From positions 160,001 through 224,000 of the forward strand of contig JAEOTA010000004.1 of NCBI GenBank assembly GCA_016840085.1: a stretch of 64,000 nt of DNA, in the 5' to 3' direction. Numbering within the stretch: position 1 is the first letter of the stretch; every line of letters begins with the position of its first letter. The notes below the pieces were generated by a model that saw only the letters and a list, made by a program, of their open reading frames with translations, was not told where the DNA came from and ran no database searches. Of the stretch, positions 54,200-58,524 are shown one piece after another. The translations under genes and the position numbers were made by a program. The stretch is from Promethearchaeota archaeon. Its GTDB lineage: Archaea; Asgardarchaeota; Lokiarchaeia; Sigyniarchaeales; SOKP01.

Positions 54200-55095
54200 A
54201 TGATTAGTAAAGAAATGGAAAATTTAATTAATTTATTAAAGCAAAATCAGGGAGATCCATCTGAACAGAGCGTAGAAGCATTACGAGAGAGTTTTGAACA
54301 AATAGGAAATATGACTATAATACCTAAAGATGCAAAATGTGAGCCTTTAGATGCCGCAGGAGTCCCTGCTGAATGGATTTCTGTCCCAGAGTCGGTAAAT
54401 GATCATGTTGTGCTATATTTTCATGGTGGTGGTTATGTTGCAGGGTCTATCAATTCCCATCGTGAAATGTGTGTCCGATTAGCTCGAGCGTCAAAAACTC
54501 GAGTTTTATTGATTGATTATCGACGGGCTCCTGAACATCCTTTTCCTGCAGCGTTAGAAGACGCAACAAAAGTATATCAATGGCTCATTTCTTCTGAGGA
54601 AATTAAGCCAAAAAATATAATAATAGCGGGAGAATCTGCTGGAGGAGGTTTAACAATAGCAACTCTTATAAAATTACGAAACGATAAAATAGACTTACCT
54701 ACAATTGGGTAATTCTTTCATCTTTCATGGATCTGGCAGTTACAGGCGATTCAGTAAAAACTAAGGCAGAGATCGACCCGCTCGTCACCCGAGAAAATCT
54801 TGAATTTTGTGCAAAAACATACTTAGGAGATGAAGATAATAAAAATCCTTTAGCATCACCTCTATATGCAGACCTTCAAGGTTTGCCTCCTCTATACATC
54901 CAAGTTGGAACATCAGAATTACTACTTGATGATTCAGTTCGCTTTGCAGATCGCGCTAAAGCTGCTGGCGTTGAGGTTACACTTGATATATGGGATGATA
55001 TGATTCATATGTTTCAAGTTTTCGCTTTTTTTGCACTAGAAGGTCAAGAAGCAATTAATAAGATTGGTGCTTTCATCCAAAAATCTCTACATTAG
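54200..55095 (+). pseudogene. alpha/beta hydrolase (HSL-type esterase) split by a -1 frameshift (or sequencing error)
   Basis: HGGGY and GESAGG in the first ORF; ASPL, ELLLDD and MIH in the second; one extra G at ATTGGG (~54708) restores GVILSSFMDL. Confidence 0.85.
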
Positions 55096-55099
55096 CTCT

Positions 55100-56461
55100 T
55101 TATTTTAATAACTTTTTTTCTTTAGCATCTAAATCTAACCAATCACTAACATTTTTGAGCTGTTTTCTTGATGTTCCACATAAAATCTTTAAGAAGGGAA
55201 GGAAATTTTGTATAAATTCAATAGGAGAGATCTCGTATTTTATTCTAATCTTCTTCATAAACTCTTTCTCATTACTACTTAAAGAAAAATAAGCTCCGGT
55301 AGTATATCTAGGAAATGCAACGTTTCGGAAACCTTTAGCTATGGGAGTTTCTTTGCGAGATAAAGCAACGCCTCCAGCAAAAAGGTCAAAAAAATAAGGT
55401 AATAACCCCCAATATTGATTAATTCGGATCCTGCCAAAAATTTCATCCGCTAATGAGAGATTTTCGTATGCCTCGGCGATCTCTCTATTAGATTTTATAA
55501 ACTTAGGGAGATTTTCATTTATCCATTTATATAAAAAATTATAATCTACATCAGATTTATCTGTTAAGTTCCGAGCTTCTCTTAACGAGGAGACTTGGAA
55601 CAAATCTCGTATTAAAGAAAAAATTTCTTCTAATCTATCTCGATGTAAACTAAGGATTAACTTTTTAGTATCTTCTTCAACTTTTCCTTGACCAATTCCT
55701 TGAAGGTCATTAATAATTCCTCGTAAATCTCCATTATTCTTTTCAATAAGTAGTTCTAAATCTTCTTCTTTAATACTTGTAATCTTTTCTTTCTTGAGAA
55801 TTTTATGTACAATTTTAGTTACTTCTTTTTTAGGTAAGGGTTTTACCTCAAATCTTCTAATTTTATTATATATTGGTTGAAGATTTGTTTTGTATTCGTT
55901 AGAACACATAATAATAGGAAATTGAGTATTTTGAATTAAATCAATAACTGTTGGAATTGCTCCTCTATCTTGCACCCCATAAATCCCATCAATCTCATCA
56001 ATCAAAATTAACTTTTCTTTAGATTGAGTTATAAAATCCATTATACCTCGAGTTTTAGTTGTTTCTTTTAATTTTCTCTCTAGTGCAGCTCTAGTTCTAG
56101 TATCAGAAGCATTAGTCTCAATCACTTCCATGTTTAGATCATTAGCAAGTGCATATACAATCGATGTTTTGCCGATTCCAGGAGGACCTTCTAATAGAAC
56201 AGCTGCTTTTTCAGGAGAAATCTTAATTTCTTCTTTTTGCTCCTTTTCGATTGCGGTCCTGTTAAAATTTCTAATTTTAGTATTTTCTTTATTTATTTGA
56301 TTTCTCTCTCTAAAGAAAGTTACAACAAAATTTTTTAATTCCTCACCCAAATTTACTCTTTGACCACTAACTCTCGCTGTAGGTAATGCCATTTCTTTTA
56401 GACTTTTTGGTCGATATTTCTCTACCCATGGGATTTTAGCAACATTACTCATTTGATTCAC
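55100..56461 (-). CDS. rfcL: replication factor C large subunit
   Basis: PWVEKYRP, GPPGIGKTS, ETNASD, LIDEIDG, GDLRGIINDLQ, WINEN, LSLAD. Confidence 0.92.
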   Translation of the reverse strand: MNQMSNVAKIPWVEKYRPKSLKEMALPTARVSGQRVNLGEELKNFVVTFFRERNQINKENTKIRNFNRTAIEKEQKEEIKISPEKAAVLLEGPPGIGKTSIVYALANDLNMEVIETNASDTRTRAALERKLKETTKTRGIMDFITQSKEKLILIDEIDGIYGVQDRGAIPTVIDLIQNTQFPIIMCSNEYKTNLQPIYNKIRRFEVKPLPKKEVTKIVHKILKKEKITSIKEEDLELLIEKNNGDLRGIINDLQGIGQGKVEEDTKKLILSLHRDRLEEIFSLIRDLFQVSSLREARNLTDKSDVDYNFLYKWINENLPKFIKSNREIAEAYENLSLADEIFGRIRINQYWGLLPYFFDLFAGGVALSRKETPIAKGFRNVAFPRYTTGAYFSLSSNEKEFMKKIRIKYEISPIEFIQNFLPFLKILCGTSRKQLKNVSDWLDLDAKEKKLLK

Positions 56462-57508
56462 CTATAAATATTCGCTAAATAAACAAATTTTAGATAGTAA
56501 ACCAGAAATTTGAATATCAGTATCTCTAGCAGCAAGTGCTCGAAAATCAGAATCTGCAATATAATTAATTAATTTAATTCTTGTGTATTTACTTAAAGGT
56601 AATTTATGTAATTCATCAAGAAGTAGCTTAAAGAGCTCATGAGAATTATATTTATAATTTGATAGAATTTTACGTGCTAATTCTCTGGTTTTTGGAAAAT
56701 CTCCTTTTAAAGCCATCATTAAAAGACTTTTTATTAAATCATTTTGAAACATCTGAGAATTTTCATACAGTTTATTCTTGTCAATAATATTCCCAGTAAT
56801 ACTACTTAATTGTAAAAGATCTATTGCTCGAGTGAATTTCCCTCCAGAAATTTTATATAAAGTCTCAATTGTTTCATCAGAAATCTGTAATGATTCCTTT
56901 TCAGCGATATCAAGGATTAAATTTTTGAAACTCTTTAATTTAACGCGTGGGATCAAAAATATCTGACATCGACTAACAATTGGATCAATTATACTTGAAA
57001 TTTTAGTCGTTATTAGAATCATCCTGCAATTAGTTCCGTATATCTCCATCAATCTTCTAAAACCCTGTTGGTTTGTTCCTAAAGCTTCAAAATTCTTTAC
57101 AATTAAAATTTTGAAAGGAGTATCTCCTAATACTTTTAATTGCACAAAAGGTTTTACCTTAACTTGAATAAATGCAGGAGTAGTTATTCTTTTTCCTGCT
57201 AAGCTTCCAATTTTACTAGTTGAGATATATGCTTCAGATCTTGCTTGTTTTCTTTCCTCATCACTCAGGGGAACATTTGCATAGACTAACTTTAAATTGG
57301 CATCAAAAGTTTTCCCAAGAAACTTTTTTGAAAATAAATATGAAATAGTTCTTTTGCCAATACCCTCAGATCCTACAAACAATAAATGTGGAAAATTTTT
57401 TAGTTTAATAGTTTGATTCAGCCTTTCTATAATTTCTTTTCTTCCACAAATTTGGTCAAGATTCTTAGGATGATATTTAATTCGCCAAATTGGAATATCT
57501 TCGCTCAA
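56462..57508 (-). CDS. divergent RFC small subunit paralog with degenerate ATPase motifs
   Basis: WRIKYHP, PHLLFVGSEGIGKRT, Walker B replaced by ILIVKNFE, RRLME, intact SRC. Confidence 0.85.
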   Translation of the reverse strand: MSEDIPIWRIKYHPKNLDQICGRKEIIERLNQTIKLKNFPHLLFVGSEGIGKRTISYLFSKKFLGKTFDANLKLVYANVPLSDEERKQARSEAYISTSKIGSLAGKRITTPAFIQVKVKPFVQLKVLGDTPFKILIVKNFEALGTNQQGFRRLMEIYGTNCRMILITTKISSIIDPIVSRCQIFLIPRVKLKSFKNLILDIAEKESLQISDETIETLYKISGGKFTRAIDLLQLSSITGNIIDKNKLYENSQMFQNDLIKSLLMMALKGDFPKTRELARKILSNYKYNSHELFKLLLDELHKLPLSKYTRIKLINYIADSDFRALAARDTDIQISGLLSKICLFSEYL

Positions 57509-57552
57509 ATTTGTATTCTCTCTATTAATATGGTTAATAAATATTATAATGA

Positions 57553-58524
57553 TTATGATTTTATATTCTCCAAAATATTTGCTAAAAGAGCTGAAACTTG
57601 GATATTCTCATCAGCACCTTGACTTATTCGGTAGTCTATCTCTCCAATATAGGATCGTATTTCTATTATCTTTTCAGGTTCAATTTTTAATTGTGGTAAT
57701 ACTTCTAATAATTGTCTTATAAAATTTCGGCTGTCAAATGATTCAATTGTGTCCACAATCTCTCTTGCTTCTATAAAATCTTTCTTTTTAAGAGCTTGTA
57801 TTAAATCATTCAAGGTTTTTTTGTCTAAAAATCCAGATATTTTTAAAATTTCATCCAAATCTAAGTTTTCTAATAATTCAAGAGATACTGACATTTGAAG
57901 AGTATTTATCCCTTTTCTTAGATCTCCTCCTGAAATAAAAAATAATAAATTAAAAAATTCTTCTGATATTTCAGGAGCAATCTTTAATTTTTCCTTTTCA
58001 GCGATGAATTTTAACCTTTCTACAATATTTTCCTTAGCTAAATTCACAAATCTAAATACAGCGCATCTTGAAATAATTGGATCTATTATTCTATTTATAT
58101 AATTACATAATAAGATAAATTTAACATTATAAGATGCTTTCTCAATAATTCTTCTAAGAGCTTGTTGAACTTGTCCAGGGATATTATCAGATTCATCTAG
58201 GATCACGAATTTTAAAGACCCATTTTTAATTAGATTTTGATTAACAAAATTTTTCAAAACATTTCTTACAAAATCTATTCGTACTGTATCAGAAGCATTT
58301 AATTCTAATAGGTTTGTGTCTAAATCTTTTGTTTCTAAGAAATTTTTTGCTATTATTAAAGCAGTACTAGTTTTTCCGGTTCCCGCGGGTCCAGTGAAAA
58401 TCATATGAGGCATATTGGGGGTTTTCAAAAACTCTCTTAGACGATTTATCGCGATACTCTGGCTCACTATTTCATCAAATGATTTTGGACGATATTTCTC
58501 AACCCAAGGAATGTCTAAACTCAT
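57553..58524 (-). CDS. rfcS: replication factor C small subunit
   Basis: PWVEKYRP, GPAGTGKTS, LELNASD, ILDESD, QQALRR, SRC, GDLRK. Confidence 0.95.
   Translation of the reverse strand: MSLDIPWVEKYRPKSFDEIVSQSIAINRLREFLKTPNMPHMIFTGPAGTGKTSTALIIAKNFLETKDLDTNLLELNASDTVRIDFVRNVLKNFVNQNLIKNGSLKFVILDESDNIPGQVQQALRRIIEKASYNVKFILLCNYINRIIDPIISRCAVFRFVNLAKENIVERLKFIAEKEKLKIAPEISEEFFNLLFFISGGDLRKGINTLQMSVSLELLENLDLDEILKISGFLDKKTLNDLIQALKKKDFIEAREIVDTIESFDSRNFIRQLLEVLPQLKIEPEKIIEIRSYIGEIDYRISQGADENIQVSALLANILENIKS

Follow-up and report, generated by a model that had tools for sequence, protein, structure and literature searches.

A Lokiarchaeales rfcS3-rfcS2-rfcL operon and an unlinked rfcS1 gene point to a PCNA clamp loader of four subunit types with a probable pseudo-ATPase at its E position

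The closest described relative of the system treated here is the replication factor C (RFC) clamp loader of the Lokiarchaeales, which were reported to encode RfcL, RfcS1 and two further small-subunit paralogues, with rfcS3, rfcS2 and rfcL forming an operon and rfcS1 located elsewhere (Feng et al., 2025, Nat Ecol Evol 9:2333, PMC12680538). RfcS2 was described as RfcE-like, with a Walker A motif and an arginine finger present, a Walker B motif lacking and an insertion that was likened to the E-plug; the four proteins of Ca. Harpocratesius repetitus all co-purified in a tandem purification with tagged RfcL and RfcS1, AlphaFold3 models put RfcS2 opposite RfcL, and phylogeny and topology tests linked RfcS2 to RfcE and RfcS3 to RfcB/C/D (PMC12680538). 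In Methanosarcinales and Halobacteria, RFC consists of RFCS1 in three copies and RFCS2 in one, RFCS2 being specialised and ending the small-subunit chain (Chia et al., 2010, PMC2880001). Here we analyzed a stretch of 64,000 nucleotides (the window; G+C about 30%) from a Promethearchaeota genome (contig JAEOTA010000004.1, contig C19 of the 4.68-Mb assembly GCA_016840085.1) and found in it the rfcS3-rfcS2-rfcL operon of a Lokiarchaeales (Promethearchaeota) member. The system itself is already known, having been published and reconstituted in 2025 (Feng et al., 2025), as an earlier note on this DNA, made from the letters alone, had suspected. The locus shares with that of Ca. Harpocratesius repetitus the taxon, the gene order, the RfcS2 motifs and extra residues that separate the Walker A and B motifs; it differs in coming from another genome of the order, in a local arginine after the P-loop lysine and in the placing of the insertion, which in our alignments comes behind the NASD strand instead of at the site of the E-plug.

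We conclude, with a probability of roughly 0.9, that four genes specify the PCNA clamp loader of this organism and that RfcS2 is most likely a pseudo-ATPase at its E position. The four would be rfcS3, rfcS2 and rfcL in the window together with rfcS1 on another contig. The three RFC genes abut on the minus strand from 55100 to 58524, with open reading frame (ORF) coordinates exactly as in the earlier note, which had described them as contiguous; Pfam and NCBIfam assign all three products to RFC families. The gap between rfcS3 and rfcS2 is 44 nt and that between rfcS2 and rfcL 0-9 nt, an alternative ATG lying 9 nt downstream of the rfcL GTG.

57553..58524, minus strand: rfcS3, 323 aa, a Lokiarchaeales-specific small-subunit paralogue with intact ATPase motifs
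56462..57508, minus strand: rfcS2, 348 aa, TTG start, with dead Walker B residues and the arginine finger kept
55100..56461, minus strand: rfcL, 453 aa, GTG start, the large subunit

The middle gene had been credited with a degenerate Walker B motif, an insertion, an RRxME motif and an SRC arginine finger, and each is seen in its translation: KNFE at Walker B, FRRLME at residues 150-155, SRC, and 28 extra residues, since residues 72-113 comprise 42 residues where A. fulgidus RFCS has 14. The NASD-equivalent strand follows directly after the P-loop helix and reads LKLVYANV (in the order's sister family, KIVYASD).

57347..57373, minus strand: RfcS2 Walker A, GSEGIGKRT, residues 46-54; G46, G51 and K52 invariant or nearly so
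57176..57268, minus strand: RfcS2 insertion, about residues 81-111, after the NASD-equivalent strand
57086..57115, minus strand: RfcS2 degenerate Walker B, FKILIVKNFE, residues 132-141; Lys in place of Asp and Asn in place of Glu
56966..56974, minus strand: RfcS2 arginine finger, SRC, residues 179-181; S179 and R180 invariant

Both PF13177 and PF08542 match RfcS2 above their cut-offs, indicating an AAA+ module followed by the Rep_fac_C collar, and its AlphaFold2 (AF2) model, with a predicted local distance difference test score (pLDDT) of 88, has the RFC small-subunit fold and aligns over more than 300 residues with RFC small subunits at VIA-align Z scores of 22-27. Against the model of the canonical archaeal small subunit (NF001679), RfcS2 scored 222.8 bits in two stretches, below the cut-off of 303. 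It matched the model of euryarchaeal small subunit 2 (NF009067) at 168.7 bits in one stretch, residues 6-341, and therefore appears to carry its extra segment in the same region as that protein. The likeness to euryarchaeal RFCS2 extends to the plan of one specialised small subunit ending the chain; the score of 169 bits falls short of the cut-off of 317, and our tree held no verified NF009067 member. The bacterial delta-prime subunit (HolB), a terminal stator that is dead as an ATPase yet retains the SRC arginine, offers another parallel, but it belongs to a distant family with a different collar, works in a loader that has no RfcL-type subunit, and its holB models matched RfcS2 weakly (31-43 bits).

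From these features a mechanism can be proposed. RfcS2 would most likely sit last in the small-subunit chain, at the E position of the published models, facing RfcL across the gap. Nucleotide binding is probable because the P-loop lysine is conserved, and ATP hydrolysis would be impossible because the Asp-Glu pair of Walker B is Lys-Asn; RfcS2 would thus bind nucleotide without hydrolyzing it. Its SRC arginine may be donated in trans to the ATP site of a neighboring active subunit, RfcS3 or RfcS1, and the 28-residue insertion, modeled as a helix (residues 83-93) and a loop, probably projects into the DNA-binding chamber, where it could act as a plug. The earlier proposal of an intermediate toward the eukaryotic complex with a dedicated E subunit thus survives in outline, since the dead subunit, the retained SRC, the linkage to rfcL and the probable E position are all in its favor and in agreement with Feng et al. 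(2025); several of its details, given below, had to be corrected.

A gene that has lost its catalytic residues and scores under the curated small-subunit cut-off might also be a decaying duplicate without function. This explanation is effectively refuted by conservation, and we give it next to no weight. The frame of rfcS2 is intact, the 47 complete orthologues from related loci are all 348 aa long (47/47), and identity across the family runs from 66 to 95%, with the Walker A lysine, FRRLME and SRC near-invariant. A search recovered 627 relatives, and we took conservation counts from the best 120, which have identities of 71% or more, range in length from 348 to 365 aa (mostly 348) and come from Promethearchaeota/Lokiarchaeota-type metagenome-assembled genomes (MAGs): more than 90% of them carry KNFE, and SRC and FRRLME are each present in 119/120. 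The confident AF2 model and the co-purification of the orthologue with the complex (PMC12680538) likewise speak against decay. The same comparison qualified one motif of the earlier note, the basic residue after the P-loop lysine: GKRT is indeed present here, but only 2 of the 115 relatives with a readable motif have Arg or Lys at this place, the family consensus being GKTT, so that Arg53 is a local variant in a family that has Thr.

The position of the operon is conserved with the proteins. Among 48 related loci from species genomes, the S3-S2-L order is the same in every locus that reaches all three genes, and a full or partial rfcL match is found in 45/48, the remaining three loci ending first. 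The sister family of the order retains the arrangement at 36-45% identity, and close orthologues of RfcS2 are limited to these two families among 301 genomes of the phylum. Some records carry other labels: a copy of the operon with 68% identity lies in a MAG labeled Candidatus Nanopelagicaceae bacterium (L043), and proteins 72-76% identical to RfcS2 are labeled Thor-, Hermod-, Hod-, Heimdall- or Odinarchaeota; these records look mis-binned or mislabeled. For ten representatives, taxon names were sought through their clusters, which yielded a single organism name, Helarchaeota.

We then turned to the other small subunits of the genome. RfcS3 has the intact motifs GPAGTGKTS, ILDESD and SRC, which are conserved in 47 orthologues, and it passes the NF001679 cut-off of 303 with 311 bits, but it is only 39% identical to the canonical RfcS1 of the same genome. 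The latter is encoded by a fourth RFC gene, P0005, on contig C4 (G000:C4:32401-33336), whose 323-aa product has all motifs intact and reaches 430 bits against NF001679; with solved archaeal RFCS chains P0005 scores 306-340 bits and RfcS3 218-234 bits. A Rep_fac_C match on contig C35 was discarded, as it scored 19.5 bits and fell within an unrelated 466-aa ORF without RFC motifs. In a tree of 118 small subunits, archaeal only and with support given by the Shimodaira-Hasegawa-like approximate likelihood ratio test (SH-aLRT), P0005 clusters with the sole RfcS of other Asgard families, whereas RfcS3 falls in a separate clade (SH-aLRT 99) whose members come nearly all from this order, with two unplaced representatives. 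Because of this placement, the sequences identify the first gene of the operon as rfcS3 and P0005 as the canonical rfcS1. The first gene is accordingly not the ordinary rfcS that it had been taken for, and with RfcS1 encoded on another contig there are four subunit types, so that the L:S1(3):S2(1) model suggested earlier does not apply.

RfcS2 itself lies within a clade of 34 rows (SH-aLRT 97). In all 28 members that we inspected, the segment measures 30-42 residues (42 in 24/28) and the Walker B residues are non-acidic or altered. The clade is deep and diverse, with Walker B residues that appear dead throughout the members inspected. Three divergent members, 28-34% identical to RfcS2, are encoded on metagenomic contigs next to other RFC genes.

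L074:4025-6999, L077:4024-7237 and L076:3054-7219: divergent clusters, order S3-S2-S1 or S1-S3-S2-L

The genes of these clusters matter for how the operon is to be read, since its products could form a second, specialised loader of RfcL, RfcS3 and RfcS2, separate from a canonical RfcL-RfcS1 loader. The unlinked position of rfcS1, which lies about 12 kb from the PCNA gene (G000:C4:45738-46106), would suit such a division of labor, as would the constant company of rfcS3, rfcS2 and rfcL. Yet the genome has a single rfcL and a single PCNA gene, tandem purification by way of tagged RfcL and RfcS1 yielded the full set of four orthologous proteins (PMC12680538), and in the divergent relatives L074, L076 and L077 rfcS1 is inside the cluster, an adjacency of S1 with S3 and S2 that fits a single four-type loader. 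We therefore hold two separate loaders to be unlikely. Some uncharacterised lineages have all their RFC genes within one cluster. The contigs that carry these clusters contain many ORFs without a family match and intein-bearing genes, one of them a PolB. Searches of IMG/VR with the divergent members gave partial matches only (19-30% identity), and ten neighboring proteins on these contigs had no match in PHROG; a viral origin, though possible, found no support in these searches.

Several points weigh against a single four-type loader with RfcS2 at its E position. The RFC proteins of this genome are known from their sequences alone, and the placement of RfcS2 at E depends on predictions; the confidence of the model in the RfcS2 insertion is moderate (pLDDT about 67-83). 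For co-purification of the set of four and for the predicted E position we draw on the literature on orthologues; both would carry over to this genome by analogy, and the published RfcS1:RfcS3 stoichiometry is either 2:1 or 1:2 (PMC12680538). The assembly has a contamination of 7.6%, for which reason the assignment of rfcS1 to this genome rests on its low G+C and on the same three-match pattern in relatives. What we observed in the genome directly are the genes, their motifs, the modeled fold, the conservation, the synteny and the set of four genes.

Next, we compared RfcS2 with the eukaryotic RfcE subunits, yeast Rfc5 and human RFC3, whose profile the earlier note had declared the same. Part of this holds: the P-loop is kept, Walker B is non-canonical and SRC is retained in both, both have additional residues between the Walker A and B motifs (RfcS2 residues 7-219 align to RFC3 3-217 with near-equal spacing), and a position beside the gap has been proposed for both. 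The likeness is nevertheless partial, one of design and not of detail. Walker B keeps its Glu in RFC3 (LLTEVD) and in Rfc5 (IINEAN), while the KNFE of RfcS2 has lost both acidic residues, and the NASD strand separates the positions of the two extra segments. In RFC3 the E-plug, a beta-hairpin (residues 67-89, tip K79-81), precedes the NPSD strand (HLEVNPSD, 92-99, with NPSD at 96-99), the HLEVNPSD of RFC3 aligning with LELNASD of a canonical subunit; the predicted helix and loop of RfcS2 follow the equivalent strand, and the insertion of RfcS2 thus does not coincide with the E-plug. When RfcS2 residues 1-140 were searched against the PDB, every alignment ended at residues 65-72 and none crossed the insertion.

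These differences raise the question whether RfcS2 matches eukaryotic RfcE in function by convergence, without being its ancestor or its sister, the loss of catalysis and the gain of a chamber-filling insertion having come about independently in the two lines. Besides the differing insertion points and Walker B changes, the HMMER alignments of the N-terminal part of RfcS2 to E chains stop at residue 65, so that the insertion has no sequence likeness to the E-plug, and E chains are the weakest eukaryotic matches of RfcS2 in both sequence and whole-chain fold: phmmer gave 149-177 bits to archaeal RFCS, 71-86 to eukaryotic B/C/D chains and 52-62 to E chains, and the AF2 model aligned with Z scores of 27 to P. 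furiosus RFCS, about 26 to B, 24-26 to C/D and 22-23 to E. Several other archaeal RfcS paralogue groups also have post-NASD insertions and partly degenerate Walker B residues; the path therefore recurs, and a convergent origin stays open. Set against this are the published phylogeny and topology tests tying RfcS2 to RfcE and RfcS3 to RfcB/C/D (PMC12680538), the fast evolution of both RfcS2 and RfcE, because of which low raw scores are to be expected even of true sisters, and the observation that, relative to RfcS1, RfcS2 retains more of its similarity to E chains (62/110 bits) than to B/C/D chains (about 80/230 bits). An exhaustive search of representative proteins with RfcS2 gave a list of 150 entries, every one archaeal-type, that ended at 98.7 bits; since the best eukaryotic PDB chain scores 86 bits, below the end of this list, our tree is archaeal only. 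Look-alikes of RfcS2 in the ESM Atlas were RfcS proteins of Asgard and other archaea and two giant-virus clusters, with no eukaryotic RFC3/Rfc5 cluster among them.

On balance we consider a convergent origin of RfcS2 and RfcE doubtful, and we are equally hesitant about the broader statement that the design of a dead, plugged fifth subunit arose more than once. If RfcS2 were convergent, it would represent a parallel solution and not a direct precursor of RfcE; in a weaker form, at least the E-plug would not have developed from the RfcS2 insertion as has been proposed. In either case, the differing insertion point and Walker B changes weaken the argument from shared features for direct descent, which is left resting on phylogeny.

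The large subunit agrees with its earlier description as lacking an obvious C-terminal PCNA-interacting protein (PIP) tail and having an internal GIMDF motif as in Rfc1. RfcL, the sole copy in the genome, passes the NF003229 cut-off of 280 with 299.9 bits and has the motifs GPPGIGKTS and LILIDEIDG with TRGIMDF (residues 137-143) between them. GIMDF, which is at least 90% conserved in 45 RfcL orthologues, corresponds in the alignment to SIKGFY of human RFC1, which is an internal PIP box with Tyr703 as its second aromatic residue. The protein ends in KQLKNVSDWLDLDAKEKKLLK, a conserved tail in which the canonical Qxx[ILM]xx[FY][FY] is absent.

56033..56047, minus strand: RfcL GIMDF, residues 139-143, an internal PIP-like motif

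A one-piece match to rfcL in the closed genome CP070805.1 comprises residues 9-122 only (L025:7078-7419), and the gene may be interrupted there.

Directly upstream of the operon lies a gene for a GNAT acetyltransferase, unmentioned in the main text of Feng et al. (PMC12680538).

58543..59016, minus strand: GNAT acetyltransferase gene, 157 aa, 18 nt upstream of rfcS3

A GNAT gene is found upstream of rfcS3 in all 46 of the 48 related loci that cover this position (46/46), in one case 2.8 kb away, and precedes the operon in most loci of the sister family. It is a conserved operon neighbor with which the transcription unit possibly begins. In locus L029, a GNAT gene and an rfcS3 fragment of the initial 68 codons are found about 2.6 kb upstream of a complete rfcS3 (L029:1689-2387 and L029:4992-5957), which suggests an insertion with partial duplication. 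On the other side of the operon, two consecutive plus-strand ORFs (54200-54712 and 54727-55095) match positions 1-96 and 118-209, respectively, of the Pfam profile Abhydrolase_3; the pair (54200-55095), which converges with rfcL, has the appearance of an esterase gene that is split or frameshifted. A further RfcS paralogue was seen in another Asgard family, f9 (L065-L068; G167, G188, G227, G037), where a solitary gene adjoining no other RFC gene encodes a protein of 370-375 aa; a 64-residue segment follows its NASD strand, its Walker B is intact (LDEAD or LDESE), and its score of 228 bits against NF009067 is below the cut-off.

The system bears on how the five-subunit-type clamp loader of eukaryotes originated from the two-type loader of archaea. 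As this argument has already been printed together with biochemistry, the window adds only another example of it. Of possible use to specialists may be the mismatch between the RfcS2 insertion and the E-plug, the deep clade of dead subunits and the constant GNAT neighbor of the operon.

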